NCBI RefSeq assembly: GCF_001447785.1
Contig: NW_015175358.1
Location: 885,546 to 949,545, forward strand
Source of the DNA: Gekko japonicus
Lineage: Eukaryota
Length of the DNA stretch: 64,000 nucleotides
Direction: 5' to 3'
Within the stretch, counting starts at the first letter, position 1; every line of letters starts with the position of its first letter. Below the pieces are notes generated by a model that ran no database searches, had not been told where the DNA came from, and saw only the letters and a program-made list of their open reading frames with translations. Positions 29,101 through 50,900 of this stretch are shown piece by piece. A program made the translations under genes and the position numbers.

Positions 29101-32100
29101 CTCTTCTCTGACAAGATCGGGGGGGGGGGAGAATGCAAATTGAGATATTGCAACACAAACAAAAGCATCTGTCCACACAGTGGGATTTCCCCAGAGTTCA
29201 TCTCCAACTTTCTCAAACCGGAGTGTACCGTTTGGTGATCCTGCAAAGAGTCTTTACAGAGCGAGCAGACTAAGCTCAGGGTAGAGCTGGGAGCATGGAA
29301 GTGGCACTACAAAGAACATGTGCATATTTATTCATTGAGCTTTTCTCCTGCTTTGATGCTGAAAGTAACTCACGGCAGTTCATGAGACACGGAAAGCCAT
29401 AAAAGACAACGACCACCAACTAAAATCATCTGCGATGGCAGCACGTGAAAGCTTCTGTAAAAGCTCATGCTTCGCCACCAGCCTCTTAAAAAGTGGAGTA
29501 GAAATGCAAGCCTCTAAAGCAGGGGTGTCAAACATAAGGCCCGGGAGCCAGATTGTGCCGGCTTCAGCAAGGCAGAACAACCTTGCCTGCAGCAGTCAAG
29601 CATCGTGGGAGCATCTGCCCAGCACTGCACTGCTGCCTCTCCGGTCTGCCTATATGGGTTTTCCTCTGCACCCCCAGCCCGTGGGGCCTGCAGGGAGGAC
29701 ACACTAAATCGCCGCTTACCATCTGCTGTGCTTTATACAGTTGCTCTCTCTGGTACCTGGCATTACATTTTATGGCACACATGGCCCGGCCTGACAAAGT
29801 GACATTTATGTCAGATCCTGTCCTCGTAACAAGTGAGTTTGATACCTCTGCTCTAAAGGGAACTTTACAGTATTGGAGTGACTACTGAAAAGGCCTTGCA
29901 CATGCCAATTTAAGTGAGGCCTCAGACAGATGTAAAGAGATGGGAGAGTCTGTATAGGAGTAGATGATTCTCAACGTACTCTGGTCCCAGACTCTTTAGG
30001 ACATTAAAGGTCAAACCAATATCTATGAACAGAACAACCACGGTGTTGTGGTTAGAGCACTGGACTAAGATCTAGGTGACCCAGGACTGAATCGCCTTTC
30101 TCCAGTGGAAGCTCACTGGGTGACCCTGGGCTAGTCACTTGCTCTTAGCCTAATCTACCTCACAGATTGTGATGGATATAACGGAGAAGGGGGAAAAATT
30201 ACTTTAGGGTTCCCATTGTGGAGAAAAGTAGGGTAGGTATAAATATATAAATAAATAAATCCAGAAACTTATCAGAAAATAACATTTTTGGAGTACAGAA
30301 GTTATGTGCACTCTTCTGCTCATGCTCGAAAACAGAAGGGAAGCAGCATTTTAAAGTAACTGAAAAGTTTCCACAGTTACTCATTTGGCCCACCCTTCTG
30401 CTGGGAGCTCAGTTTGGCATAACATCTGTTTTATGTAAGCTGCCCTGAGCCGGCTCTGGCAGGGAGGGCGGGGTAAAAAAAAGTGCAAATAAATAAATAA
30501 ATAACATATTCTGAAGTGGCTTGGAGGAGTCTCCGAACACAACAGAAAGGCAGGGCACTATGCAGGGGATTAGAGGCGTGGATGTCAACCAGTGTTCCCT
30601 CTAAGGTGAGTTAGTGTGAGCTAGCTCACAGCTTTTTAGCCTCCAGTTCACAGATTCTTGCCTTAGCTCAGGAGGGGATGGCTCCAGAACAAAGTAGTTT
30701 ACGCTGTAGCCAAATGACTCGCTCACAACTTTAATGCCAGTAGCTCACAAAGCAGAATTTTTGCTCACAAGACTTCACAGTTTAGAGGGAACATTGATGT
30801 TAACTGCATGCATCACTTGGCCACGATCATAATGGGGGGGAAAGATGAAGGATGGAGAAAATAAGACCAAGTACGGAAAAATCAACTGATAGTTTCTAAA
30901 AATGACCTGATAATTCTGAGGGTGAAAGGTTGAAAATGAGATAAGCACAGAAATATTCTCATCTGTTTTACAAGAAGTTGTCAGTTCCAAGACAACTTAC
31001 TTCCAAATCTTGATAAGGTTGTCACAGCCTCCTGATGCAAAGCGTTTGATGTAGTTTGGCTTCTGGCCTGATGGTTGCTCTAGAAGGCTTCCTGGTACAA
31101 CTGCGGGGGCCCAGCTAACAGCATTGCAACCAATCTATTAAAGGTGAGAAATTTATACTATTTCCTTCAATTCACAGCCAAAGCAACCACACAAGCATCA
31201 TGCCCATCCATTGAAACAGCTGCCTGAAAACTGTTTTTTCCTCTGAATGGTCTCTTAATCCAAAACAGCAGCATACATTTATATAGTACATATCATGGAT
31301 AACCACAAAGGCTGGAGAAAATGTTATTTGTTAAGAACAGCAGAGAAAATCCTGAGCCCCTGAGCACTTGTCCTGATCCTTTAAAGCTAGGATGCCCGGG
31401 TCATTCCATGCTGCTCTTGCAGTCACAGTTAGGGAGCCTTTAACAACAGGGAAGAGTGAGAGAACGCATACAGCTGTCATAGCTCTGCACAGCTGCAAAC
31501 TACAGAAATACCCAAGGTGCCACCTAGTTTTCTGGTTTTAAAGGACATAACAGATAAGCACACCCTTGACTGGCTTGTGCCACTTTATGCGTGGTACACA
31601 TCCACACGTAATTTCTGCCCTCCTGGAGGTATTTTGTTAACAGTAGGCTTGAAGTCAGATAACACTTGCATGCAGAGACATACCTGAGAGTAATTAAGGC
31701 TCTAAATCAACAAATCTAAGATGTCCATGTTATTTTCTGTGAACATATGAAATTGCCTTACACTGCATCACTAGTGATCTACTGAACCTGGTTCTGCATT
31801 CTCTGGCTGGCAATGCCTCTCCATGGTCTCTCAGTCTTATAATCCCCCTTATGCAGAGATGCTGGGGACTGAACACAGAACCTTACACATGCAAAAGTGC
31901 ATGTCCCAGAACTAAACTACGTAGCCTCCTAATATAGTGGCCAACATATTCTGTTCTTGGATCTTAGAGCCCATAGCTACTATGCATGACACTCAGGCAG
32001 CTTTCTGCCTTAACTCTGGACTTTAGATTAGCAAAATCAGCATGGAATCTCTCCCTTATAATAAAGCTGTAAGACGCAAACTCACGCAAACTCACACCAA

Positions 32101-35100
32101 CAGTGTTTGGACGGCTCGGCTGCCCGTCACCGGCTCGCCCACCTCCCATTGGCCACGCCGTCTGGATCCCACCCCAGACGCAGCGTCACGTTCCCGGGGG
32201 CTGGAGGCGACCGGCCTAAGAGCGGCGCCTGCGGAGGATGGTCCCGGGGGCTGGAGGTGACGGGCGCCTGCACCGGCCGGTGGCCTCAGACCGGCGGCGT
32301 CACGGCTGAGAGGGAAGCACACAGAGAGGGAGGAGCCGAGCGCCCGCCGCGGCACAGGCAAGTCCCGCGAGTGGCTGGGTCCGCCGGAGGGGGCAAGGAG
32401 ACCGCGCGGGAACAGTGACGGGCGCAGGCCGCCTGCGTCACGGTGAGAGGGGAAGGAGGCGAGACGGGAAGCAGGCAGGGGGGGGCGCCTAGCCGCCCGT
32501 TGCATTGCCCTCCGCAATGGGCCTTCCTCCCTAGTGTCCATATACTTACTGTGTGTGCATTGCCAATTTTTTTCACTTCCCACTGTCCATCACCAGTGTA
32601 GTTCAACAGAGAGATGGCCCCATCCGAGCTTCCACAAGCCAGGATCAATCCGTAGTCTTGTGGTGCCCAACACACAGAATTGACTGCCAGACAATAAAGA
32701 AATGGAATGATTATACAGATCAGTTGGAAATCCAGGGGGGAAACAAGTGCTCCCTGGTCTTATAGATATGTGTGAATGTGACAAATGTAGCCAAAAATGG
32801 CATATGGGGCTCTGCAAAACAGGACAAACACTGTCCAGTTATGCTGCCTGGCCACTGAAAAGCTATTTTAAAAGACTTTGCAGAAAGAACCCACAAGTGT
32901 GTGTGTGAGATGACCCATACACTTTTATGGCAGTATACAGTTTGTTATCTTCAGTGCTGCTTTATCATGAGCAGCTGATTCATGTGATACCACTATTCTG
33001 CATCTGCAAACACCAGTGGTGAAGGCAACATAGTTGGCTTGAAACAGCAAGGAAACATCACAGAGGGTAAACTCAAAGTGGTGGTGCAGCCACTTGGGGA
33101 AAAGGCAGAAGGTGATTTGATGCCAAGTGCAACTGTTATGAAAAAATCACTCTACCTAGATTTCCAATCCTGTCTACCTGCTTGAGTCACTCCAGTCTTC
33201 CTGAAGCAGTTATTTGTTTACACAGCGATTAGGATTAGATGTGCAATAAAGGAAATGAAAGAAGGACTGTGGGTGTTCCCCATGCTAGGTAAAAGCTTTA
33301 TTTTTAACAGGAACAGAGTTTTCTGTACCAGTTTCAGGCTGCAGGTGGGGGGGAAAGAACTCTGAACTAAGTTTTTGGCTGGCCAGGATAAAACCCCTTT
33401 CACATATTTATCTCTCACAGAATCATGCCACATAAGACTTCAGAATGGCCACAGAACTGGATACTGGAAACTCCACTCCTTTCATACGTTGTTAAACTAC
33501 ACTATACTACGGAATGGGAAAGCGGTACTAAGTTCAGCTATTTCTGAAAGAATAACCTTGAGGAACATGAAATAGCTTGTGCAACAGAGAAGGGTCTAGA
33601 AAGAGAAAGTAGTTATGTATTTACCCCCCCTCAAACCATATTGTGACCAGGTAGACCCCTAATGACTACATGGCCTGTAGTTGAGATGTGGGCCATGGCA
33701 GGGGAGTAAACCTGGAGGTGAAGACATACACTGTTACATACACAGGGAAGTGCAGGAACCAAACCAAAATTCAAGAGCCTAACAATAAGATCTACAATCA
33801 GAACAGTTCAAGCAAGGTGCAGCCTAGCATTAAACGTAAAAGGACACAGGGGTCACGCGACAGAAACCCAGTATGCTCATTAAAGAACCTGAAAGCTTGT
33901 GACCACTACAGCTGCATAAATTTTAAATCAGCTTGTAATTATTACAAGCTCAGTCTACAGAGAAGTGTAATACTGTGGTCCCAGTATTACAAGAAGAACA
34001 TCCATACCTGAAGAATCATGCCCTGTGTATTCATATGTCTTTTCCCAGGTACCATTTTCTTCCTTCCAGATGATAACCTTCCGGTCATAGGAACAGGAGG
34101 CCAGGATGTTTCCATACATGGGATGAGCCCAGGCAACCTGCCACACTGGCCCTTCATGCCTACAATAAATAAATAATGCAGGTTTTAAGAAAGAACGTAT
34201 TTGCATGCCAAGATGTTTCATTTTTGGTTATTATATGTCATAGCATTTTGAAGCTGTTGACAACTGTACAAATATTTAAGGCTATAGATACAAACAAATC
34301 TCAATGAGAAAGCCCAGGAGCAACAGACAGTACCCATGTTGCAGTGGCAGACACTTGCCCCCTGAACAGACTTGCTAGTATATTTATTTTGACTGATGGC
34401 CCACCCTTCAGATCAGATACTCATTAAGTACAAATTAAAGAGACAGATTTTTTTTTTTAATCCACACACGACAACAAAGGACAGCATGCACAGACTTACA
34501 AAATTATCAACCGGATAAATCAAAGCCAGCCCCCACACTCAAAAGATGGATGTCCCATCTGGTCTCTTCTAGAGCTCTGCATTCTACAGTCAGGGAACCT
34601 TTGCTCCTTGTGGCTACAGTTCCACAGTGAGTGACTACACAATGGAGGACTAACCAACAGGGGTCACTTCCTGCAGGAGCGCACAGGAGCGGAGCTCCGG
34701 CAGTGAAGAACCCGGGGGCGGGCACATGCAACAAGCTCCACCCCCTGCTCCCAGCAGCCATCAGTCAGAGCAAGAAGCAGCCAGGTAAGCTGCAGAGCCT
34801 CCCCCGGCCCAAAACAGTCCAGTGGCACCTTTCAGAAGAAGTTTTATTCAGGTACAAGCTCTCCCTCCTCTGGGAGGACAGATCTGCACATCCCCCCCCC
34901 CATAGCTAGCAATCCAAAACAGTCCAGTGGAGACTGAGTGCTGGGTGTTGGTGTCTGACACACTTCCGGTAATGTCAGGGGGTGTGGCATATACAAATAA
35001 GTTATGCTAATGAGTTATGCTAATGAGCTCCTGCACCTCTTTTTCTACGAAATGACCCCTGCTAACCAATATGCAATTTCTAGGCACACTCATAAGGCAA

Positions 35101-38100
35101 AGTACATGGGGAAAGAGGATAAAGAAAATCTAGAGAAAGCTCCTTAAAAAATCCCTCCCATCTATTTCAGTTCCCATCTATTTCATCTATTTCTCAGCCA
35201 AGTGCTTTAGTTTTCCCTTTTCCCTTTTCCCCTTTCTCATCAGTTCCTTTGTGGAACCACTGTTCCTTGAAAGATGAAGGTGCTATCACCTCTGCCATCT
35301 AAATCTTCATCTGCATTTCATCCTGAATTTGCATTTATTTTATTTATTTATTTAATTAATTTTATTTATACCCCGCCCTCCCCGCGAACGGGCTCAGGGT
35401 GGCTTACAGACGGCACAACAGTGCATATAATATATAAATTAGATAAAACAGGTAAAATTCAATATTATCAGATACAAGATAAAACTCCCCTATCTCTTAC
35501 AAGCAGAAGGGGAGGACTAGGGCCGTAGATGGATGTTACCTGGCCCTCCGGCGGTATCGCTCTTGTGCTGGAGCAGTGGTGGTAGTGGTAGTGGCAGTGG
35601 CGGCTCCTACTCGAAGGCCTGGCGGAAGAGCTCCATCTTACAGGCCCTGCGGAACTGCATGAGGTCCCGCAGGGCCCTGATCTCCTCTGGGAGCTCATTC
35701 CACCAGATAGGAGCCGCCACTGAAAAGGACTTGGCCCTCGTTGCCGCAAGCCTGGCCTCCTTGGGGCCCGGGGTCACCAGCCGGTGTTGTGACCCTGACC
35801 GAAGTGCTCTTTGGGGAATATGTGGGGAAATGCGGTCCCTCAGGTATGTTGGACCCTGGCCATGTAGGGCTTTAAAGGTAAGCACCAGCACTTTGCAGCG
35901 AATCCGGTATGCTATAGGGAGCCAGTGCTGCGCTTTCAGTACAGGTCGGGTGTGCTCCCACCTAGGGGCGCCCACCAGCAGCCTGGCCGCAGCATTCTGC
36001 ACCAGCTGTAGCTTCCGGATTTGCGACAGAGGCAGCCCCATGTAGAGAGCGTTACAGTAGTCTAACCTCGAGGTGACCGTCGCATGGATCACTGTGGCCA
36101 TGTCGTTGCGGTCGAGGAAAGGTACCAAATGCCATACCAGCCGAAGATGATAAAAGGCTGATCTGGCAGTGGCTGCCACCTGGGCCTCCATTGTTAAGGA
36201 GGGGTCCAGGAGCACTCCTAAACTCCTAACCTCCGAACCTGACACCAAAGGCGCCCCATCTAAGGTCGGAAGCAGGAGCCCTAACCTCGATCCGGTCCGA
36301 CTAAAGCACAGGACCTCTGTCTTCGCCGGGTTTAATTTCAGCCTGCTCTGTCTGAGCCACCCAGCCACGGCATGTAAAGCCCGGTGCAGATCTTCTGGGT
36401 TGGAGTCCGACTGGCCACCCAACATCAAATAGAGCTGGGTGTCATCTGCATATTGATGACACCCTAGCCCATACCTCCAGGCAATCTGGGCGAGGGGGCG
36501 CATATATATGTTAAACAGCATTGGGGAAAGCACCGCCCCCTGAGGCACCCCACATTCCAGTGGGTGCCTCTGGGACTAGCACTACCCTCTGTCCCCGACC
36601 TTGGAGAAATGAGGCAAGCCATTGAAGGGCAAGCTCCTGGATCCCCACGTTGACGAGGCGGCGGGACAGCAGCTGATGGTCAACCGTATCAAAAGCGGCC
36701 GACAGATCTAACAACAACAGCGCCGCCACACTGCCTCGATCCAGATACCTACGGAGGTCATCAGTCATGGCAACCAGTGCTGTCTCCGTCCCATATCCCG
36801 GGCGAAAACCAGACTGGAATGGGTCAAGGACAGAAGCGTCATCCAGATAGCCCTGCAGCTGAATCGCCACCCACTAGTCGCCACCCACTAGTGCCCTCAG
36901 TGCAAACAACATTCAATGAGTTGCAAAACCTACAGATCGCTTTTAAGCTTCCTTTACTCAGACAGAAAACATACACAAGGTTCCATTTAAGGCATCTTCG
37001 ATAAATAGCTTCCACGGAACTGATACTTGGGTACAGAACAAAATTGTAAATAAAACCAAAACAAAGTGTAACAGCAGTGCCAACTGAGCCTTCAACAACA
37101 TATTAAGCTAGTTATTGTGTGGATAACCAAAAACTGAAAGTGGGGGATACAGCAAAGGATCTTCTTGCCTTGAATTCACTCACCCTCTTAAGTCAGCTAT
37201 CAGAATTTGCCCTCCATTCCTGACATCAAATATTTTCACTGATCTGTCCGAGGAGCAGGTTGCCAACCGAGTGCCGTAATAATCCATCTGCGCATCATGC
37301 TGGAAAGTAGTTACAAAGCTTTCATGATTCCCTGTTAACTCTCATTTCACTCATACTAAGGGTTTTTTAAAAAAATCCTGATGTGTCAAATGACACCAGC
37401 TACAGTAGGATGGCAAAGGGTGGTTCATTAAAATAGATTATAGTTATTATTGCTATTATCATATGGCAGTGTGTGTAGGAAATCCTAAGATTGTCTGGCA
37501 GCCAGAAGTTCTAGCTCTTTTAGTGTTATGCACTACTAGGTGTCGAGCTAGACTTGTTTTTAAGGCAAAAGACATTCCAGAGGTGGTTTGCCACTGCCTG
37601 CCTCTACGTCACGACCCTGGTATTCCTTGGAGGTCACCCTTCCAAATATTATCCAAGGCCCACCCTGCTTAACTTCCGAGATCTGACGAGGTCAGGATAG
37701 CCTGTACTATCCAGGTCAGGGCATTGTTTATAGTATTTTATGGTAGAAGAATCTATAGGCTACACTACACTATGATGACAATCAGTACTGTAGCAGACTG
37801 TCCCACAAGACAAAATCTTAAGTAGGGATGACAACTGGGAAGACAAGCAAAACCAGGCTAGGGCCCCCAACTATCCTATCACCCCGTCTCCCATGGTCAG
37901 GGAGGGGGGTGTACTTGAAATTTGAAGTATTTTAGAATTATTACTGAGGAAATAATGTTTAATTCCCCCTTGTTGCTAGTTTTTAAAAAAACCACTGCAT
38001 TAGATACTATTTTGGTGGGGCATGGCCAGGCAGACAGCAGTAATGTAGAATACAGTGTAGAATCCGATAGTTTGCAGATAGACTGATGGTCAGAACAACC

Positions 38101-41100
38101 AAGCTACTCAGCAGTTATCCAGAAGGCACATATTGCTTGTTCTGACACCAGCTCATTACATGATATAAACACAGTGCTAAAGAACATCACTTATACAAGT
38201 CCAATTGATGCAAAGGACAACTCAGACCACAAATGCCAGTTATTTCAGTGCAGATGTTTCAAGTGGATTATGCCTTCTAGGTTTTTTTTAAAAAAAAAAT
38301 TATTTCCCCCACTATTTGAGTCAGCCCGGCTATTGTTATTCTTATACAGCAACAAGAAAGTCCAGTGACAATTTAAAGACTAACAAAAATTTATTCTAGC
38401 ATTAACTGGATAACTCAGCAGTTATCCAGAAGGCACATATCGCTTGTTCTGACACCAGCTCATTACATGATATAAACACAGTGCTAAAGAACATCACTTA
38501 TACAAGTCCAATTGATGCAAAGGACAACTCAGACCACAAATGCCAGTTATTTCAGTGCAGATGTTTCAAGTGGATTATGCCTTCTAGGTTTTAAAAATAA
38601 AATAAAATATTTCCCCCACTATTTGAGTCAGCCCGGCTATTGTTATTCTTATACAGCAACAAGAAAGTCCAGTGACAATTTAAAGACTAACAAAAATTTA
38701 TTCTAGCATTAGCATTTGTGTGTCAGAGTTTACTTCATCAGATGCCTGGAGGGTATATCCATAGCAGCAGTTAATAGTTTAATTCTCCTCCTCCAACATG
38801 CTCCTGGTTTATAAGAAATGGAGAAAAGTTACTAGAGCCCGTCCCAGATCTTTAAACAGTTCTGGCTTATAGATGCAAAAAAAATTCAAAGAGGCAGAAA
38901 ACCTCTGAATAGCAGTGGCAGGAGAAAACATTAGGCCTCTCCTTTTGTTCTTAAATACATAGAGATCCAAAGCCCCCTAGTAGACAATGGATGGCTCTAA
39001 GGGTGCTCATCAATTCACACTCTGCTTCTTAGAATCAACCAAGACATCCCTCCCTCTGAAAACACACACAGCACCACTGCTATTTCTCCTCTCTTCCTTC
39101 ATAGTGGCAAGGAGTACTTGGCAGACAGGTATTTTAAGGGTCATACACATTATAAATTCCACACTTTTAAGGGAGAAAAAATTCTTATGGGGGGGGGACA
39201 TATATCGGATACTTACTATCATGTCCTCATGGGAGGTATCCACTGTATTAATCACAGACACCTAATAATAAAATACTTTGTTAGAAATTGTGAAATCAGT
39301 TAACAGACTCCACACCAGTGTTCCCTCTAAGATGAGTTAGTGTAAGCTAGTTCAGTTTTTTAGCCTCTGGCTCTCACATTTTTGTTTTAGCTCGGGAAGG
39401 ATGGCTCCACGGCAAACTAATTTATGCAGTAGCCAAACGCTCTCTCACAACTTTAATGCCAGTAGCTCACAAAGTAGAATTTTTGCTCACAAGACTCCAC
39501 AGTTTAGAGGGAACATTGCTCCACACCAAGATTTTAATCTAGTGGTAAATTGAGTCATCATATTTTGTTTAAAAACTTTACATATGGCACCTGACTGTGA
39601 GGGAAAGAAAGATGTTAAAGTTGGTACATCTTTGATCAGATCTAGTATTATCTTCATGTTTTTATTCTGCTGCTGCTACAGTTCTTAATTCTAGATCTTC
39701 CTCATTTACCATTACTTCTGGCATCCCAGTAATAATGCCACTCGTTCTAAATGTAAATTATACCATCTGTAATATCTTTAATCAAAAGAACACATATCTT
39801 CTTTGCTTTGCAAATCAGTACAGGACAAGCTATCCCAGGGCAAATGCAGGCAGCAGAGAAGACACCTCAGTAGTGCATAAGGGGCAAGAGACCACTCAAT
39901 GATCCTTAGTGCAAGCAGCAGGGGTCGTTTCGTAGAAAAAGAGCTAGGGGAACTCATTAGCATAACTTATTAGCATATGCTACACCCCCTGGCATCACCG
40001 GAAGTGTGTCATAAGGCCACACCCCTGACATCACCGGAAGTGTGTCATAAGGCCACACACCCCGCCCCCAACAGTCCCGGCCGCCGCCGGCCTTGCAGCT
40101 CCACTGCCGAGCCCCATGAGGGGCCCGGCGGTGGACCTGCAAGGCCGGCGGGAGTGCAAGGAAGCCCCGCAAAGGCCCTCCCTGGCCCCAGGCAGGCAGG
40201 GGTGGGGAGAGGCAGGGAGGAAGCAACTTACCCTCCCTCTTCTCCTGCCTCCTCCTGGCTGAATGAGGGCCGGAAGCGGGGCGGCCGGAACCAGGGGACG
40301 GGGCTTCGTCATGTGCCCCGCCCCACGTACCTCACCCAGGGGAACTCCCCCGCGATCCCCCCCGAAATGACCTCTGGCAAGCAGAGCTGCTTATCTTCCA
40401 CCTGCCATGCTGGCTTGTTTGAAACAGTTAATATTAACAAACTGTAGAGCATTATATTTTCCCACAATATATCTTTAAACATCCTGCACTGTTTTAAAGG
40501 CAGATGGATAAAGTCTTTAGTTATTTGTAACTGGGAGGAGTGAATACAGAGAATCCTTGGTATATGAGGAACATTTTCATCTATTGACCAGTGAAGAGAA
40601 AGCAGGGTTGCCAGCTGTTGTTTGGGAAATTCCTGGAAACTTTGGGGGTGGAGCCTAGGGAGGGAAGTTTTGGTGAAGGGGAGGGACTTCAGTGGAGTGT
40701 AATGCCATAGAGTCTACCTTCCAAAGCAGCCATTTTCTCCAGGAGAAATTATTTCTGTTACCTGGAGACCAGTTGTAATTCTGAGAAACCTCCAGCCACC
40801 ACCTGGAGACTGGCAACCCTAAGAGAACGAGATAGAGGTACAAGAGCATTCCTGTCTTCACTTGTGAAATGTTGGAGAGGGCATGTTGACGTGGCTATGC
40901 TGGCCAGGTTTAGGAAAAGGGCAGAGGTTGGAAATGGGCATGCATGGAGAATTTGCAACTATGGGGGGGGGGGGAGTAATCCAGTCCCCTTTACAGAGAA
41001 TTAATGTGCAGATTGCAGAAACAGGCAGCTGAAGCTTTTGATGGCCTGGAGGTTGGTAACCTCATCTGGTAAATACGATCTTATTACGCCTCTATTAAAG

Positions 41101-41373
41101 GAGCTGGACATTTTTCCCCTCTCCGGGCTCCTGGCAACCCTACTTGCTTTGATCCAGCCAAGGAACGCTTATGTGGTTAGGAGGACCCTTGCCGACTAGA
41201 TAGCCCCAGGAAAAGGGGTGTGAGAATCTGCGTCGCCGGGAGCAGCCCTACAAGGTAGGTAAAGTGCTACGCGAAAAGTTTCCGCCCCCGGGGACTCCCT
41301 CATCTAGATACCCGAACAAGCTGTACGCATTTCAATAATGGCCCTTCCCAGCCTCCCCCCCCGTTCTCACCAT
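26081..41373 (-). CDS. SEC13: Protein SEC13 homolog (WD40; COPII / Nup107-160 / GATOR2), spliced CDS 963 nt / 320 aa
   Basis: Exons 41373-41371, 39261-39217, 37299-37184, 34159-34008, 32683-32550, 31134-31001, 29107-28987, 27795-27649, 26191-26081; [40 protein letters not shown]...ITEGQQNEQ*; all GT-AG and in phase. Confidence 0.98.
27649..27795 (-). CDS. SEC13: SEC13 exon 8 ([11 protein letters not shown]...SGGDNK)
   Basis: 147 nt, tag / gtgagt. Confidence 0.97.
28987..29107 (-). CDS. SEC13: SEC13 exon 7 ([26 protein letters not shown]...SCSQ)
   Basis: 121 nt, cag / gtaagg. Confidence 0.96.
29520..29850. mobile_element. hAT (Charlie-like) MITE
   Basis: TIR CAGGGGTGTCAAAC / GTTTGATACCTCTG; perfect TSD CTCTAAAG. 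Confidence 0.88.
30590..30796. mobile_element. hAT MITE (TIR CAGTGTTCCCTCTAA)
   Basis: TSD ATGTCAAC/ATGTTAAC; second copy at 39316-39518; longer relative at ~11430-12632. Confidence 0.85.
31001..31134 (-). CDS. SEC13: SEC13 exon 6 ([15 protein letters not shown]...[11 protein letters not shown])
   Basis: 134 nt, tag / gtaagt. Confidence 0.97.
32048..32534 (+). mobile_element. Non-autonomous Helitron
   Basis: A|TC...TATAATAAAG 5' end; subterminal hairpin GCCCGTTGC...GCAATGGGC (32495-32522); CTAG|T 3' end; no TSD; GC-rich interior. Confidence 0.75.
32550..32683 (-). CDS. SEC13: SEC13 exon 5 ([22 protein letters not shown]...AHT)
   Basis: 134 nt, cag / gtaagt. Confidence 0.97.
34008..34159 (-). 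CDS. SEC13: SEC13 exon 4 ([16 protein letters not shown]...HDSS)
   Basis: 152 nt, tag / gtatgg. Confidence 0.97.
34658..35061. mobile_element. hAT non-autonomous element (TIR CAGGGGTC), cargo type B
   Basis: Perfect TSD CTAACCAA; right ~100 nt shared with the 39919/48656 elements, interior different. Confidence 0.85.
35333..36870 (-). mobile_element. L2-clade LINE, 5'-truncated RT region
   Basis: [60 protein letters not shown]; (TAAA)n tail. Confidence 0.93.
37184..37299 (-). CDS. SEC13: SEC13 exon 3 ([39 protein letters not shown])
   Basis: 116 nt, cag / gtgagt. Confidence 0.97.
37520..37722 (-). mobile_element. 5S rRNA-derived SINE
   Basis: Minus strand GATCTCGGAAGTTAAGCAGGGTGGGCCTTGG...GGAATACC resembles the 5S internal control region, followed by an RTE/BovB-type tail GGCAAACCACCTCTG. 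Confidence 0.7.
38106..38711. repeat. Tandem duplication of a ~300-bp unit (period 307)
   Basis: ACTCAGCAGTTATCCAG...TTATTCTAGCATTA occurs at 38106 and 38413 with few differences. Confidence 0.93.
39217..39261 (-). CDS. SEC13: SEC13 exon 2 ([15 protein letters not shown])
   Basis: 45 nt, tag / gtaagt. Confidence 0.97.
39316..39518. mobile_element. hAT MITE (TIR CAGTGTTCCCTCTAA)
   Basis: Perfect TSD CTCCACAC. Confidence 0.88.
39919..40376 (-). mobile_element. hAT non-autonomous element with CpG-rich cargo (SEC13 intron 1)
   Basis: TIR CAGGGGTCGTTTCG / CGAAATGACCTCTG; perfect TSD GCAAGCAG. Confidence 0.88.
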
Positions 41374-41830
41374 GGCGACCACAGATTGTTCTCGGCGGCA
41401 CCGACCCCAGTTGCACGAGCTGGTCTCCCGGCTATTCTCAGACGTGGCAAATCGCCTTAGAGCTCCGCGTACTACAGCGAAATTTTCCCGGCCGGCATTA
41501 TACCAATGCAGAAAGGTTCCGCGTGCTGCTCGGGCCCGGTTTTTTCCGTGAGGTGTCTCAAGGCCTCTCGCTCCTGTCACCAGTTGCTTTGCTCCAGCGT
41601 AACTTCGATCCCTATCTGGAAAAGTGTGCCTTGCACACGAAAGCTCGTACCTTGGATAAACCTTTGTTGGTCTTAAAGGTGCCGCTGGACTCTAAATTTG
41701 TTCTACTGCTTCAGACCAACACGGCCGACCACCTGGATCTTCGATCCCTACTGTTATCACAGGATTACAGGCCACTGAATTGATTCGCTCTTCAGCCCAG
41801 CTCCTGCGCGGATATTGTGGCGCTGACGGG
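41200..41830 (-). promoter_or_regulatory. SEC13: SEC13 CpG-island promoter
   Basis: CpG-rich stretch around the ATG exon; CCAAT ~41503, E2F-like TTTTCCCGG ~41483. Confidence 0.65.
41371..41373 (-). CDS. SEC13: SEC13 exon 1 (ATG only)
   Basis: GTCGCCATG|GTGAGA in a CpG island. Confidence 0.85.
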
Positions 41831-42329
41831 TTTCTGTAAGCTTGGTGTGCTAATGGCTCTTCAGTCAAAACTTTGAGCTCTTCTGCCTCAGTCTCACTTT
41901 TTATTTTGTAAAATTAAAATATTTGTATGTCACACTTCTAGATCAGCCTTGCTCCAAAGAACTGGAGCAAGGACTTCACAGTAATACACATGGGTTTGCT
42001 GCCCTTTGACCTGCAAAAAGTTTGAAATAAGTGGATTGCCGAAAGGCAAGTTGATGGTCTTAATAAAAACGAATGTTTTTGCAGCCTCCACCACTGTTTT
42101 GGTTTATGGGTCATTTTTGGAACAAGCCTAAACAGGTCTACTCAGAAAAAAATCCCGTTTTAGTCAATGAGGCTTACTCTGAGAAACGTGCTCTTTGGAT
42201 TGCAGCCTTAGAGAAGTAACCACTTATTTCTCCTCCTCCTATAGTGTAAAGTTATTGTTAAAGCTGGTAAACATAATCACAACTACTGATGAAAGTTAAA
42301 GAAGAAAGTGTCAAAGCAGGATTACAGCT

Positions 42330-43015
42330 GAACATAAAAAAGACAAATTTAACGACCGCTGGGGAATTATACAATTTTTAAGACTGACAATGAAGAAATT
42401 GAAATTGTTAAAAGATTTTCTGTTCCCTGGCTCTTTCATTGACCAAAGGGGACACTGCAACCAAGAAACTAGAAGGTGATTAAGACTGAGGAGGGCAGCC
42501 ATGACGGAGCTAGAAAAGATCCTTAAATGTAAGGATGTATCGCTGGCAACCAAGATCAAGATAATTCATATTATGGTATTCCCCATTACAATTTATGGGT
42601 GTGAAAATTGAACAGTGAAGAAAGTTTATAGGTTAGAGAGTTGATTCCTTTGAAATGCAATGTTGGAAGAGAATTGTATGGATTCCATGGATCAGCAAAA
42701 AGACAAATAAAAGGGTTCTAGATCAAATGAAGCTTGAATTATCCTAAGAAGCTAAAATAACCAAACTGTGGCTATTGTACTTTGGGCATATTATCAGAAG
42801 ACAAGAGTCACTGGAAAAAACAATGCTAGCAAAAATGGAAGGCAGCAGGAAAAGAGGGAGACCCAACATGCCATGGATTGACTCAGTCAAGAAAGCCACA
42901 GCTCTCAGTTTGCAAGACCTGAGCAAGAAAGTCAAGGATAAGACATTTGGAGGTCTTTAATTCATAGGGTTGCCATAAGTAGGAACTGAAGCGACCTGAT
43001 AGCACTTAACACATA
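42330..43015 (+). mobile_element. RTE/BovB-like LINE 3' fragment
   Basis: YFGHIIRRQESLEKT and EGSRKRGRP..WIDS motifs; related fragments at ~7395-7610 and ~53650-53970 (minus). Confidence 0.8.
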
Positions 43016-43586
43016 CACAGGAACAGTTGTGTAAAAAAAGTGATTTGATACTTTTCCTTAATGCTTCAAAATTTGTTTTTTTGTTCTTTTCCATTATTAT
43101 TTTTATTTGTATCTTTTTCTTTGCCTTGTGTCACATTTAACTAAAAAACTCAAATATCATCATAGAAGCAGCAGCTTATATTTCATCGTTTAATTGGATG
43201 GACTGAACTGTACTCAGATAACCCTCTATAACCCTTTTTTCAAATTCAGAATAAATGACTCCGTAATGCTTTCCAAACTCTTATTAAATATTTTCTTATT
43301 GAGTCAATTTGCTACCAAAGTTCACCCAAACAACTTTAATGTTACTGCTAAAGATATCTTTGTATGTAACAAGGTTTTATACTGTAGATACTTGGTCTTG
43401 TTGTGTGTGAGTGGTATTGAGTCTGTAAATCAGATGTCAGATGGTTGTTGCTTATCCTATCCCTACCCAAGGAATAGGATGGCTGGAGCTGTTGTTTGCA
43501 GTCTTTAACTGTTCCTGGTTTGGCAGTTTTAAATTTCAATGACAGCGAAATCCTGTAGTGCCACTGTTAAATACATGTCATACTGA

Positions 43587-43805
43587 TAGGGTTGCCAAGT
43601 CTGGGTTGGAAAATACCTGGAGACTTTGGGGGTGGAGCCAGGAGAGGGCGTGGTTTGGGGAGGAGAGAGGCCTCAACATAATACAATGCCATAGAGTCCA
43701 CCCTTCAAAGTATCAATTTTCTCCAGGGGAGCTAATCTCTGTCGGCTGGGGATCAGTTGTAAAAGCGGGAGATCCCCAGGCCCCACCTGGAGGCTGGCAA
43801 CCCTA
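43587..43805. mobile_element. hAT MITE (TIR TAGGGTTGCCA)
   Basis: Perfect 8-bp TSD CATACTGA; family also at ~825, ~4480-4678, 21868-22126, ~40604-40821, ~46361-46558, 47366-47573. Confidence 0.88.
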
Positions 43806-44609
43806 CATACTGAAGAGGTAGTAGAATCCACTGACTTGTTCTGCCTCAGAAAAGTTTCTTAAAGAGCTATTATAAGGAAGTCTACTCAGAGTCATACTGA
43901 AGTCTACTCAGTGGGGCTTATTTCCAGGAAAGTGCTTTTAGGATTGCACTCTCTCTTTTCTGTTTGCACAATGGGGATAATGGTACTCTACAAAGAAAGG
44001 CTCTGGGTAAGGACAAAAGAACTTAACAGTGCTTCCCAAATGCCCGTTTAACAGCTTGTTCCTGTTAGATGCTGAGGCGTTTGTCACTCTTCAAAATCTG
44101 GTTGCAAAGTCTTTTTGAGCCAATTTCTTATAGAAATGTAAATGTGCGCTAAAACAAGGTCAGCTTTACTCCTGCAGTGACCCCAGTTAAGTTAAAAGTG
44201 CTACAAACAATGTAGCAACAATCACTCTTATCTTTTTTGGAAATCGTTATTAAAGATAAAAATTCCAGAGGGTTAGCGGTGTGTGACTGTTGCAGCAAAA
44301 GTTAGCAGTTCTTTTGAGGTATCCTAAAAACTAACAAAATTGTATTCCAGAACAAGACTTCTGTTTGTTCGCTATACAGACAAATCCCAATGACCCTCTA
44401 AACCTAGTTTTCATTCCAAATGGTCTCAGCATTAAAAGTGTTTTTATGCCGGTGCCTTTTTGTTTTTTAGATGATCATCCCTTGATTGCAGTGTGTGTTT
44501 GCAAGCACCTGCAGTTGTACTGCCGCAATAGCAAGGTAAGCCTCTGGGATGGAGTTAGAAGCACAATTGCTTCCTTCTCTTCCCTCGCCTGTAATTTGAG
44601 AGGCTGCAG

Positions 44610-44912
44610 ATGTCTGTCAGTAGGTGGCGCCCTTAGCTCGGCTCTAGCTCCGACCATAGGCTATATATATCCAATGATAACAGTACAGGGGCTCAGCTTT
44701 TCCAGCGACTTCTAACGGGGAGGGGGTGGGGGAGGGGGGAAAACACTACCCCTGTCTCACTGTGTCCCTCCTGTCGCCATATTCTCCATGCAGATCCCCA
44801 GCAGACAGAACCCCTGCTTAGGGCAGCAAGAAACTTCAGCTCTCCCATTGTTATTTTTTTAAGAAAGCAAGACAGTAGAGAAGAGATCGTCTTCCAGAAC
44901 CAGCTGTCCAAG
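44610..44912 (+). promoter_or_regulatory. CAND2: CAND2 proximal promoter / 5' UTR with CTCF-like site and TATA/MEF2-like AT element
   Basis: TGTCAGTAGGTGGCGCCC (44615-44632) fits the CTCF core; CTATATATAT (44661-44670); E-box CAGCTG at 44901. Confidence 0.5.
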
Positions 44913-44980
44913 ATGACTAACATATCCTATCACATTTCCAACCTCCTGGAGAAGATGACATCCACCGACAAAGATTTTAG
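44913..44980 (+). CDS. CAND2: CAND2 exon 1
   Basis: 68 nt, [23 protein letters not shown], donor AG|GTAGGA. Confidence 0.93.
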
Positions 44981-47900
44981 GTAGGATCTACACTTCCCTT
45001 GGGTTGGGGTGTGGGTGTGGGGTGAATTGCAGAACCATGTTTGGAGATTTAGGGGATGCCCCCATCGGTGAATTGCACACGTGTGTGATTCACAAGCCTT
45101 TGGGATGTTGGGAGATTTATGGAGGACGAGGGGGGAGATTTTTTTTTTATAGCTGCAGCAAAACAACAACAATCACCTGGATCCAGCCAAAACCCCTGTA
45201 ATGAAGAAGAGAAGGCTAACCAAGGAGGATCACTAGCTATAGTCTATACAAAATCTCACCTCCCCCTGCAGGAGATGTTATACAGAGCCAACAAGCCAGA
45301 TATGTAATGTACTGCAAGCTTCCGGGGCGGGAAGGAGAATACTACATCCTACAGTTTCTCTTGCGGCCCCTCAATAGCTAACATTCTGATATCCTTTTAT
45401 GTCCCTCCTCCGAGACTGAGATAGAGATGCACTGCTAGACAGCTGCAGTTGGGGGGGGGGGAGGAATCTTCCTAATCAGCTGTTATTGGCTGGGAGATGA
45501 TTGGCTGCCTTCACTGTCTTGTCTGAAGAAAAACAAATGTGATCTCCAGTCTCCTTAGAGTACCGCACAGCTGGGGAGTAATAGTCACTTGTCCACTGGC
45601 TTGTTTGTGCTGTCAAGTGAACCAAATTGGAGTTTAACTGTTGCTGAACAAAGATGCGTTTTACATAATTCTCTGAAGTGACAAGCAAAAATGAGCCGCA
45701 GATTAAATATGGGGGGCGTGTTTTGATGGTGTGACCAAACAAAAGAGGAAAAAATCAGCCACCAAATAAGTGAAAGTGGATTTGTGGGTCAGTTAACAGA
45801 ACATTTAAAACAGAGTACATAGCATACATAGTACACATAGGAGCTGCGGTGGCTCAAGTGGTTAAGATGCTGAACTGCAGGCTGTGGAAGGTCAGTAGTT
45901 CAGCAGTTCGAGACCCGAGTGTGCCGCATGATGGAGTGAGCTCCCATCTCTAGTTCCAGCTCCTGCCAACCTAGCAGTTTGAAAGCAAGAAATTGCAAGT
46001 AGATAAATAGGTACCACTTCGGTGGGAAGGTAACAGCGTTTCGTGCGCCTTGGTGTTTAGTCATGCCGGCCACATGACTATGGAAACGTCTTCGGACAGC
46101 ACTGGCTCTTCGGCTTTGAAACGGAGATGAGCACCGCAACCCTAGAGTTGGACTCGACTGGCTTTCGAGCAAGGGAACCTTTACCTTTACATAGCATTGC
46201 TGGAACCAGCTGAGTTGGCATCCCAGCATGTTAAGGGGACGGAAATCAGGTTAATTTCAGTAAAAGATGAGGCCTAAACTGGCTTAAACGGAGGCAACTG
46301 GGACTTTAGCTTATTTATGTTTATGGAATGGACTGTTACCAGATCATATAGTTGATAACTGGTAAGGAAATTCCTGGAGATTTGGGGGGTGGAGCCTGTG
46401 GAGGGCAGAATTTGGGGAAGGGAGAGAGCTCGGCAGCAATGTGATGCCAGTCCAACATCCAAAGCTGTCATTTTCTCCAGAAGAAGGGATCTCTGTGGTC
46501 TGGAGCTCAGTCATAATTCTGGGAGAACTCCAGGCCCCACCTGGAGATTGACAACCCTGCAGGAGACCCAAAATATAGTTCTGCATCTGGGAGTTAGTTA
46601 TGCTGCAGATATCAGTAGGGCTGTAAAAGAATTTGTTTTGGGCTGTGAATTTGGGAATGTTTAATATGGAGCAAAAATATTTATACCCCACCTTAACCTC
46701 TTGGCTCAAGGCAGCTTACAGGTAATGATAGAAAACAAAATAAAAATCCCAAATACCACCTCCCCCTCTGCAAGATGCCTCCTTGTTCATACCCCATCAG
46801 AAGCCCTGGCAAACAAATAAGCCTTGCAGTGTTTCCTGAACATCTCAAATAAGGGGGCGCCCCCTCATCTCTTTAGGGAGCCCATTCCAGAGTGGGGTCA
46901 TGATGCAAAAGGCCCACGCTCTGGTTAGAGTTGGGAAATACCTGGAGATTTGGGGGGTGGATCCTGAGGAGGGTGGGGTTTGGGAAGGGGGCAGGGACTT
47001 CAATGGGGTCTAATGCCATAGAGTCCACCTTCCAAAGTGGCCATTTTCTCCAAGTGAACTGATCTCTGTCACCTGGATATCAGTTTTTAATAGTGGGAAA
47101 TCTCCAGCTACCACCCATAGGTTGGCATCCCTAGCTGTGGTTCATGCCAGGCTGGCCACCCTAAGTGAGGAGACAGCCAGTAGGTGACAGCCTGAGTTGG
47201 CACTCAGGACCACATGGGAGGACATGGTCCTTCAGATGTGTGGGCCCTAGGCCATGAAGGGCTTTAAAGGTCGTAACCAGCACCTTGAATTGATGGAAAT
47301 AAAATGGCAGCAATGTAGATGTTTCAAGATGGGCAAGGTACATTCCCATTGGCTAGGCCCCTGACTAAGGTTGCCAGCTCTGGGCTTGAAAATACTTGGA
47401 CATTTGGAGGGTGGAGGTGAATCCTGGGGAGGGCAGGGACTGGGAAGGGGAGGGGCCTCAGCAGGTTATATTGTCATAGAGTTCATCCTCCAAAGCAACC
47501 ATTTTCTCCAAATAAACTGATCTGTCATAATGGTGGGAAATCTCCAGCCACCAATTTGAGATTGGTAACCCTAGTCCTGACAGTAATCACACTGCCGCAT
47601 TCTGGACCAGCTACCGTTTCTGGGTTGGTTCCGAGGGCAGCTCAACACAGAGCACATAACAGTAACCCAACTGTGAATTTACAGAAGTGTGGATTGGCAT
47701 AGCCAGATCAGCCGAGTCCAAGAAAGGAGAGAACCGGTGAACCAGAAGGCGCTCTTGGCCACTGCACGTGTAGTGCTTTTTAAACAGCAAGTCCTAGGGT
47801 TGCCAGGTCATGCCTGGAAATCAGTGGGAGCTTTGGGTGCAGGGAGCTTTGGGGGCACAGTGCAGTGTGTGCCTCACATTAGTTCTGGGGGAAACCTAGA

Positions 47901-50900
47901 GGTGACGCTGGGTAGCTCTAGGATATGCCAGTGATTCCTGCAGCAATCCAATGTCACTTTCGGGTTTCCCCTGGCAGTGATGTCATAGCACATGCAATGC
48001 CAACCAATTTTTAAAAAATCTCTCTGTGGCAAGCTATGAGGGCTGCTGGTGGGAACATAAACATGCCCAGGCTCTTAACCTGCTCTGCAAAAGCCAGTTC
48101 TGCTCCATTCAGGATATGCTGCTGGAGCTATGTTTTTTTGTGATTTTATTGTCTTCCCTTTGCCTGTTGCCATTTTCTTAGCTACTTTTCTCCATTTGAA
48201 GCAAGACAGGAAGTGGATGAAAGTGCCACTGCACATTAGAACAGTACGGTTGAAATTATGCAGAGTTAAAATTTTGGTTAGCTTGCCCTGCTCCCTATGC
48301 AGTTATTTTATTTTACATTGTTCATCTAGATGCCTTACTATAACTAATTCCCCCCTAACCAAGTAGAATATTCTGTCCCAACCCTTCAGGCTAACATTAA
48401 CCCTTAGCTGGAAGCTCTGGATTCCTTAGCATCTGAGTTCGCTATCTATTAGCAACTCTCCTCCCCCTCCTCACTCTGAATCATATGCTAGTCATACTAA
48501 ACAAAGATAAACAGTGTATTAAAAGCTGCTCTCTGGAAGCATAATATCCCTAGTGGGGTTAGAAATGATGCAGCTTGGGAGTTGCTGTTCTGTGTACAGC
48601 AGTGAACTGTAGAATGATACATATTGATGTTACATTGGCCCTGATAAGGTGATTGCAGAGGTCATTTCGGGGGGGATCGCAGTCCCCCCGGGTGAGGTAC
48701 GGGGGCGGGGCACATGACGAAGCCCCGCCCCCTGCTTCCGGCCGCCCCGCTTCCGGCCCTCATTCAGCCAGGAGGAGGCAGGAGAAGAGGGAAGGTAAGT
48801 TGCTTCCTCCCTGCCTCTCCCCACCCCTGCCTGCCTGGGGCCAGGGAGGGCCTTTGCGGGGCTTCCTTGCACTCCCGCCGGCCTTGCAGGTCCACCGCCA
48901 GGCCCCTCATGGGGCTCGGCAGTGGAGCTCCAAGGCCGGCAGCGGCGGCCGGGACCGTTGGGGGCGGGGTGTGTGGCCTTATGACACACTTCCGGTGATG
49001 TCAGGGGGTGTGACATATGCTAATGAGTTATGCTAATGAGTTCCCCTAGCTCTTTTTCTATGAAACGACCCCATGGTGATTGTACTTGTGTAATCTTAGG
49101 ACCTAAACTGGAAGGTACATATTGGCAATATTACTTTCTCCAATATATGTAACTGCCACTGACACAAGGCCAGGTACATTTGTGGCCTCACGTATCTTTT
49201 TGTGCCATTCAATTCCAGATTGGAACATTCCTGTTTGGGTCCTATATCAATTGTTCACTGCCTCACAAGTGTAATAGGGGCTTTGTTGTATGTTATATTC
49301 TGTACTATTTGACCTCTGAAGACGGCTGGTTTGGGCCGAAACATGTCAGGTCATATATGATTCCTGTTGTGTCTGTTGTGGGGAGGGAAAGGGAAAGGAG
49401 ATTGTAAGCTGCTCTTGAGACTCCTTTGTGTAGTGAAGGGCAGGGTATAAATCCAATCTCTTCTCTTCTTCATTTCCGTACACCCTGTATTTAATCTCTG
49501 TATTAAAGGGTTACTCTTTACTCATTTAGCTGCTGGACAATTTATGAATTGGTTAGTGTCAGTGAAGATTTGTTGCTTTTTACATTCTGGAGCTATGAAT
49601 TTTCATCTTCTGTGTGGCTGCCAGTGGCTGTAATTTGAATTTCTGAGCCCAGCCTATTGTTGGCATTCATTCCTTCTTCTCAGGTTTATGGCTACCAATG
49701 ACCTGATGATGGAACTGCAGAAGGATTCCATAAAGTTAGATGAAGACAGTGAGAAAAAAGTTGTGAAAATGCTGCTGAAGTTGCTGGAGGACAAAAACGG
49801 GGAGGTGCAGAACCTGGCTGTCAAATGGTAAGGCTTCCCCTGCATCAATCATAATGCTTAATAATGGAGACAAATCTTTAAAGTATCCGAAAGTGGGGCT
49901 TCCGATGCTGGGCCCTGACTGTTTTCTTTCTCGTGAGCTTCTTCTGTTTCACACACTACAAAGTCAATGTGTAGGTTATGACTTTTGTCTTCTGGCTTAA
50001 TCGACAGGCAGAATTCTTTGGTGGGGGTGGCTAGTGGAGGATGATTACAAACCGTGATGGAAGTTTGTGTGTGTGTATGTTCACATGTGCATTTATGTGC
50101 CTGCATGTTCATCCAATAGGGCCCTCGTGTTTGTCGCATACAGCCAGGAAGGAGCCACATGGAAAATGAAGGAAAAATATTTGACTCTGGAGATAGCATT
50201 GGAAACTGTTTAGATTCCCCTTTGTAGCTCAGCCGACATGCTATTGCAAAGCAATAGACAGTGGGAAGTGTGTATACCCACTCCGTTTACTTGATCTGTT
50301 ATCTCACAAGGCTTCCTCTTGGCTGAGACAACTAAAGGTCTAGTCATACCTCAAACATTGATGTATTATGACTGTTTGCGAACTAGAACTCCCATGAAGT
50401 ACCTGGTACAAGCCAGAATGAAGAGTAACTGGAAGAGAAAGGGGTTTCTGCAAATTTCCTTCATTACTGCTATCTACCAGGCTCTGCCAAGGAAAGTTGC
50501 TGTGAAATAGTTTTTCCTTTATGTGTAACTTTTGCTTCTTGCAGCTTGGGCCCTTTGGTGAGCAAAGTGAAAGAATATCAGGTGGAAACCATTGTTGATA
50601 CGCTATGTACAAACATGCTATCCGATAAGGAACAGCTCCGGGACATCTCCAGTATTGGGCTGAAGACAGTGATTTCAGAGCTGCCGCCTCCATCCACTGG
50701 TAAAAAAGTAACCCTCTTTGTTTACATAATGAAGAGGAATTCCAGAACCAAAGCCATGTAGTACCTTTTATGAGGACTGGTCAAATTATCATAAAATACT
50801 GTGAAAGCCTTCATATTCTCTAGAATTTTTCGTCAGGCTGGATATTTGGAGGATGGGGTGGGGCGGGGGGAAGGAAAAACCCGCTTTTCCCCATGTGTGA

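Follow-up and report, generated by a model that had tools for sequence, protein, structure and literature searches.

Promoter-like hAT-type elements in the divergent SEC13 and CAND2 genes of Gekko japonicus are most likely ordinary, silent insertions

Introduction

Transposons have already been shown to supply genes with new 5' ends, in bats by Helitrons and in plants by Pack-MULEs. The bat element HelibatN3 is described as carrying the promoter, first exon and splice donor of NUBPL, with demonstrated transcripts of which three initiate in the element (PMC4778049, PMC4224331). In the hAT elements the layout of maize Ds2 consists of shared ends with filler between them (PMC3260210), a promoter is located in the 5' end, with weak activity in the case of hobo (PMC6446368), and TcBuster favours start sites and CpG islands (PMC3499496). 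Herein we analyze a stretch of 64,000 nucleotides from the gecko Gekko japonicus (assembly GCF_001447785.1, contig NW_015175358.1, positions 885,546 to 949,545), hereafter the window, in which two near-identical MITEs (miniature inverted-repeat transposable elements) of the hAT type, designated A and B, lie in the divergent genes SEC13 and CAND2 and carry promoter-like motifs followed by a strong splice donor. An initial annotation had read them as portable first exons captured from a host gene, and that interpretation is partly supported by our analysis. We propose, with a probability of roughly 0.6, that A and B are ordinary hAT MITE insertions with latent promoter and splice signals and that they are most likely silent. 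Our literature search, which covered search listings, turned up neither a published description of this MITE family nor a report of a reptile hAT element as a source of new 5' ends.

Results

Structure of the Elements

Three members of the family were delimited, all positions being those of the window:

39919-40376, minus strand: element A, a non-autonomous hAT-type MITE of 458 bp that lies in intron 1 of SEC13 in the sense orientation, with target site duplication (TSD) GCAAGCAG
48656-49074, plus strand: element B, a copy of 419 bp lying sense to CAND2 in its first coding intron, with TSD GGTGATTG
34658-35061, plus strand: element C, the third member, in SEC13 intron 3, antisense, with TSD CTAACCAA

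These elements have the features of hAT MITEs, namely 8-bp TSDs, short terminal inverted repeats (TIRs) of the CAG(A/G)G type with which hAT termini start, subterminal repeats and no transposase coding (none was found in their 404-458 bp, and a 114-residue open frame in A has no Pfam match and a single low-complexity protein hit). The TSDs are exact at A (copies at 39911-18 and 40377-84), at B (48648-55 and 49075-82) and at C, and each is different; a composite transposon extending from A to B was rejected because the TSDs at its outer flanks differ. The 11-bp TIRs of A have two mismatches (9/11 matching) and those of C match at 10/11. In B the final two bases of the 3' TIR are mutated, which is why this element was missed by a scan for TIRs and TSDs, and its end can alternatively be read as a 7-bp TSD with a 1-nt insertion in the TIR. 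A and B are identical at 402 of 416 aligned bases, in addition to which there are three small indels and a 36-bp duplication in the right arm of A (39986-40058). They are inverted, with their inner ends 8,279 bp apart and a 245-nt core that is 98% complementary. This identity and the different TSDs confirm the original description of two near-identical, inverted and independent hAT-type insertions. The window contains no autonomous hAT element with these ends, positions 34500-49500 gave no Rfam match at gathering score that would indicate a structured RNA gene, and a plasmid collection gave no match to the element, a result that is uninformative for a vertebrate element.

Element C, which lies 4.9 kb from A, is 65-66% identical to A and B, but this value conceals a mosaic. 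The left ~140 bp and the right ~100 bp are common with A and B (the scores were reached in 0 of 500 shuffles in each case), and the middle is unrelated to theirs (399 of 500). C has a strong donor of its own at 34785, at a distance from the TIR similar to that in A and B, and for the donor region alone the score was reached in 7 of 500 shuffles, with ambiguous register. The segment 34816-34860 in the middle of C resembles 22557-22600, which is part of another short repeat (E = 5e-4), and is either a nested insertion or filler.

The Left-Arm Module

The promoter-like features are concentrated near the left end of the elements:

48693-48794, plus strand: left-arm module of B, with two GC boxes, an ATG, two ETS-like sites, a purine-rich stretch and the donor
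40232-40334, minus strand: left-arm module of A, with its ATG at 40312 and having lost an ETS site as well as a GC box
48874-48941 in B and 40084-40151 in A: 68-nt palindrome in the subfamily-specific middle, absent from C
48982-49074, plus strand: right arm common to A, B and C, with an ETS-like motif and a 13-bp subterminal tandem repeat

The promoter-like motif order leading into a strong donor was described correctly, except that A lacks two of the motifs. The module, which starts no more than about 40 nt from the TIR, is located in the left arm that is common with C rather than in the variable middle. Since C keeps this arm and its middle is unrelated, the so-called first exon belongs to the family arm, and it is the sequence beyond the donor that is exchanged. 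In B, the two main GC boxes form the opposite arms of a single hairpin that encloses the ATG at 48714, the two ETS-like sites (48730-48758) are a 15-bp tandem repeat, and the purine-rich stretch of 27 nt (48768-48794), bounded by an AG and the donor, is paired with a run of pyrimidines beyond the donor. All three copies also have an ETS-like motif in the right arm. Folding z-scores, obtained from 25 shuffles per sequence, were −9.1 and −5.2 for the interiors of A and B, compared with −0.75 to +1.9 for four segments from the two real CpG-island promoters of the window, −1.5 to −4.3 for three other MITEs and −3.4 for a piece of a LINE (long interspersed element).

CpG Content and Decay

A CpG island is at least 200 bp long, with a GC content of at least 50% and an observed/expected (o/e) CpG ratio of at least 0.6. 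The GC content of the whole elements A and B is 65% and their CpG o/e is 0.53-0.54, while the ~140-bp left module alone has an o/e of 0.64-0.65, so that the term CpG-island-like is marginal. Merged sub-windows of A and B have an o/e of 0.55-0.62, like short interspersed elements (SINEs). By comparison, the values are 0.79-0.82 in the real islands, 0.59-0.72 in the SINEs and 0.86 in an intronic repeat that is unrelated, which means that the CpG richness of A and B is equalled or surpassed by unrelated repeats in the window (0.59-0.86). A comparison of A with B shows decay at 4 of 22 CpGs, a rate 5.4-fold that of non-CpG transitions (p = 0.016). CpGs represent 11% of the bases but 4 of the 10 transitions (p = 0.018 against no excess), and this is compatible with the control ratio of 6.8, the pooled value of three of the four informative repeat pairs (individual range 4.4-15.9). 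Eight control pairs were run, and four were uninformative, with 2-4 CpGs each (one ratio 1.1, one 0). A and B therefore show CpG hypermutability like that of neighboring repeats, albeit in small numbers, and not the status of a hypomethylated CpG island, and the proposal that they are unmethylated islands is not borne out.

Insertion Site and Orientation

Two of the three family copies (A and B) are in the sense orientation and C is antisense, and two of two would be sense by chance with p = 0.25. Because both A and B are sense and their hosts are divergent genes, the mirror image follows and adds no information, and orientation, which had been read as a signal when C had been missed, is not one. 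The window has 13 long repeat pairs of near-identical sequence, and 6 of them are inverted. Among the other hAT-type MITE copies, 11 of 15 lie within 3 kb of the four start sites, a zone that makes up 34% of the window (p = 0.002), and 12 lie within 5 kb (p = 0.019); B is within 5 kb of a start site and not within 3 kb. Since such MITEs cluster at start sites, as TcBuster does, the promoter-proximal location of A and B is expected.

Host Genes

The four genes in the window are TATDN2 (plus strand), ghrelin (minus), SEC13 (minus) and a CAND gene (plus), the ghrelin assignment resting on a Pfam match under the cut-off. SEC13 and CAND2 (CAND1-like) are divergent neighbors. When exons were joined by coordinates, SEC13 was rebuilt as a complete protein of 322 residues and the CAND gene as an open frame across seven exons. 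The parts that bear on A and B are:

41371-41373, minus strand: SEC13 coding exon 1, which is the ATG alone
39217-39261, minus strand: SEC13 exon 2, 45 nt, starting in phase 0
41077-41896: true CpG island (o/e 0.79) located at the start of SEC13
44913-44980, plus strand: first coding exon of CAND2 (CAND1-like), 68 coding nt, ending in phase 2
49684-49827, plus strand: CAND exon 2, which contains Met25, Met31 and Met32

For the CAND exon, lizards provide the nearest named orthologues (99-100% identity), and most of the named orthologues from reptiles and birds at 91-100% bear the label CAND1-like, CAND1 or CAND2 (putative). The repeat types of the window resemble those of geckos. Exon 5 scores 131 bits against solved CAND1 and 93 bits against CAND2. 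That the gene is a true CAND1 was nevertheless rejected, because the orthologue labels and the neighbors TATDN2, GHRL and SEC13, a neighborhood that we take to fit the CAND2 chromosome segment, favor CAND2. We accept that it is the CAND2 orthologue, so that both gene labels given to the locus are supported. Mammalian CAND2 is muscle-enriched, according to reference titles in PMC11865535. As exon 5 is nearer to solved CAND1 than to CAND2, mammalian CAND2 biology carries over by assumption only.

The CAND2 first coding exon has no CpG island (o/e 0.30 across 44500-45400). A candidate non-coding exon at 44471-44535 (plus strand; acceptor 9.2, donor 11.0) lies upstream of it, and the acceptor that follows, at 44864, scores 8.1. 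This exon would shift the CAND2 start upstream, possibly to the CpG island of SEC13, which would then be a bidirectional promoter. Hence the statement that the elements reside in intron 1 of both genes is accurate for SEC13, but given the possible upstream exon the intron that contains B is best termed the first coding intron of CAND2.

Splice Donors and Predicted Products

The donors at 40231 (minus strand) in A and 48795 (plus strand) in B are each sense to the host gene and upstream of its exon 2, as had been stated. Scored with a donor matrix, they reach 10.4 and 12.8, respectively, where 19 real donors range from 4.2 to 11.5, and donors of at least 10.3 also occur in 2 of 13 other elements. 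The element ATG, whose context is weak, lies 81 nt before the donor. In A it is in frame with SEC13 exon 2 and would lead to an extension of SEC13, not a truncation. Joined to CAND exon 2, the element ATG would open a reading frame (ORF) that is out of frame, runs across the Met25 codon and terminates within exon 2. The donor also has possible partners within the element:

48795-48889, plus strand: possible 95-nt intron within B, from the donor at 48795 to the best internal acceptor at 48889, with an equivalent in A

This internal acceptor, 95 nt downstream of the donor, scores 7.2, and the AG 27 nt upstream of the donor scores 6.1, compared with a median of about 7.6 for 20 real acceptors and a 95th percentile of 6.35 for 1,990 intronic decoys. 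Both would compete for the element donor.

The proposal that the element in CAND2 would yield a useful N-truncated protein meets two difficulties, namely the upstream ORF that runs over the exon 2 ATG and the nature of what is lost, since a Met25 start would remove part of the N-terminal arch by which CUL1 is gripped (PMC10156175). CAND1 without helix 1 leaves CUL1 faster, and CAND2 without helix 1 gave no viable protein (PMC11865535). Of 120 CAND hits, 4 are annotated as Met25-start models; all of these come from a snake or birds, and in view of the species they presumably need no such element.

Other Features of the Window

The window contains further repeats and irregularities. An older hAT-type MITE family of ~220 bp has seven copies or fragments, counted by hand, at 40603-47795 in the SEC13/CAND promoter block and further copies beside the TATDN2 and ghrelin starts. 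Another MITE family with 8-bp TSDs is represented at 30590-30796 and 39316-39518 (an 86% pair), the former copy having a strong donor (11.9) antisense to SEC13 that is lost in the copy in SEC13 intron 1. The plus-strand element at 32048-32535, with a GC content of 70% and a CpG o/e of 0.86, is more island-like than A and B; it has a TC start, a small 3' hairpin and a CTAG end, is presumably Helitron-like, and has its end ~15 nt from the donor of SEC13 exon 5. A SINE-like inverted pair of 279 nt (11702-11980 and 13988-14266; 98.6% identical, 2.0 kb apart) brackets a TATDN2 exon. SEC13 intron 2 contains a 307-bp head-to-tail duplication (38106-38711; 97%), which is real or an assembly artefact, and there is an assembly gap of 380 bases at 137-516, near the window start.

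Discussion

We propose that A and B are separate insertions of one young, non-autonomous, Ds1/Ds2-like hAT subfamily. They would have been mobilized in trans by a transposase encoded elsewhere, landing near promoters through a hAT preference for open chromatin, and one of them may be a local hop of the other; that both are sense to their hosts would be happenstance. The module would most plausibly be a remnant of the promoter and 5' splice site of the parent element rather than a captured host exon, reshaped by small fold-back and tandem duplications. Because hAT elements carry a promoter in the 5' end, such a native origin is plausible though unproven. The copies would be methylated in the germline like neighboring repeats and mostly silent, and a donor that has no active start site would be tolerated, with rare cryptic products at most. 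The most likely lesson of this locus is that hAT insertions close to promoters can look designed when the genes are divergent.

Several observations weigh against this proposal. The B donor outscores all 19 real donors, and the A and B donors are the only sense-strand intronic sites of at least 10.4 in about 29 kb of intron (14,170 nt in SEC13 and 14,745 nt in CAND). A donor at the B level occurred in just 0.25-0.3% of 2,000 shuffles, although one at the A level occurred in 6-8%. All four CpG decays lie outside the core of GC boxes, ETS sites and donor, the CpGs of which are intact in both copies, and decay between two copies, here calculated from 10 transitions, records lineage history and not present methylation. 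C is not palindromic (folding z = +1.8), the clustering test used a MITE list and four start sites that were set by hand, and to call the module the element's own promoter is an inference. The protein searches, in which one low-complexity hit at 35% identity (in ten stretches) was obtained among 1.84 billion representatives, none of 370 candidates for longer proteins was element-fused and none of 121 stored proteins contained any of four element-frame words, are weak negatives, since isoforms are hidden behind cluster representatives.

A rival possibility is that A, B or both are active alternative promoters and first exons, whatever the origin of the module. If transcription began upstream of the element ATG, a 27-codon leader would replace Met1 of SEC13 and CAND2 would acquire the out-of-frame upstream ORF, and a start downstream of the ATG would give a non-coding exon with translation from Met25. 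The motif order, the very strong donors, the intact core CpGs, the frame shared by the ATG and SEC13 exon 2, and the HelibatN3 precedent all speak for such activity, and an extension of SEC13 may be tolerated, as a solved SEC13 chain of 368 residues (part-labelled 'Isoform 3') has 46 extra residues before the exon. We regard it as unlikely, nonetheless, considering the repeat-like CpG decay, the loss of an ETS site and a GC box in A, the hairpin pairing on the exon side of the donor, the competing internal acceptor, the fate of CAND proteins without helix 1, the lack of a matching protein in the library searches, and Met25-start models that presumably need no such element. Capture of the module from a host, where it would have been a housekeeping promoter with the first exon and the start of the intron, followed by amplification, is compatible with silence and yet less probable still. 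It would explain the promoter-like, GC-rich content, multicopy Pack-TIRs favor GC-rich captures (hAT-N8_XT took 291 bp of the CAPSL 5' UTR, or untranslated region; PMC8277862), and the repeat-like piece in the C middle indicates that interiors are exchanged. However, blastn with a word size of 7 returned only A, B, C and self-palindromes from the 64-kb window, so that no source locus is present there, the module adjoins the TIR in an arm common to a divergent subfamily, the nested palindromes are unlike the real promoters of the window and the pair of ETS sites represents a local duplication of 15 bp, and the idea of a captured cargo is not supported. Beyond the two loci, it is quite improbable that an abundant squamate hAT MITE family has a complete, portable promoter-exon-donor unit in its conserved left arm that is active in some copies and preferentially kept sense in first introns. 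If true, this would be a cut-and-paste counterpart of HelibatN3 on a genome scale; through two insertions that flank a single divergent promoter, SEC13 would gain the in-frame leader and a new 5' end would fall to CAND2, or else the two genes would share one micro-exon of nine residues.

Such a micro-exon would arise if the 27-nt purine-rich stretch were exonized as a cassette, adding nine codons with the frame kept and no stop in both SEC13 and CAND. Frame preservation, the purine-rich body and the very strong donor suit it, and Ds1 provides donors and acceptors for exonization (PMC5395267). We consider it very improbable, as the acceptor (6.1) is just below the 95th percentile of decoys and below the real median, a neighboring AG (6.3) yields a frameshifting exon of 23 nt, the exon is very short and no such protein is found among the 120 CAND hits. 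The importance of the pair as a substrate for inversion, by which an 8.3-kb block would be flipped and the promoters swapped, we regard as far-fetched. Oppositely oriented transposable elements can recombine and invert the intervening segment (PMC8225341), and the inverted homology of A and B could in principle do so, as had been suggested, but at each of the new junctions the reading frame is shifted and early stops follow. SEC13 is an essential protein of COPII and the nuclear pore, and with both products frameshifted an inverted allele should be purged. Moreover, the homology is short, the outer terminus of B is damaged and comparable inverted pairs are common in the window.

A and B can also be compared with described systems. 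A and B resemble maize Ds1/Ds2 in their length of about 400 bp, 11-bp TIRs, 8-bp TSDs and subterminal repeats, as well as in having shared ends with exchangeable filler and cryptic splice sites that are open to exonization (PMC3260210, PMC5395267), but they are squamate elements with a GC-rich palindromic interior and their splicing is a prediction from sequence. The Xenopus tropicalis hAT MITEs domesticated as enhancers are likewise vertebrate hAT MITEs with transcription factor motifs near genes, although they differ in being distal enhancers with enrichment in ATAC-seq, an assay of chromatin accessibility (PMC12676858). Pack-TIRs, including the Xenopus hAT-N8_XT with its CAPSL 5' UTR and the rice Pack-MULEs, share the TIR element with a GC-rich interior, several copies with distinct TSDs and a location near gene 5' ends (PMC8277862, PMC5861414). 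A Pack-TIR is defined by a parental copy of at least 90% identity and its captured piece is internal filler apart from the shared ends, whereas A and B have no such copy in the window, their motif block is in a shared arm and their variable middle is a palindrome. HelibatN3 is matched in the proposed function, a mobile promoter and donor that lies sense in an intron, would join the next acceptor and would give N-truncated products (PMC4778049, PMC4224331). A and B are not Helitrons of this type, with TC...CTRR ends and no TSD, and were rejected as such on account of their TIRs and 8-bp TSDs; HelibatN3 has a known parental gene, which A and B lack within the window. Should some copies of the family prove to be transcribed and spliced, squamates would hold a DNA-transposon source of new 5' ends.

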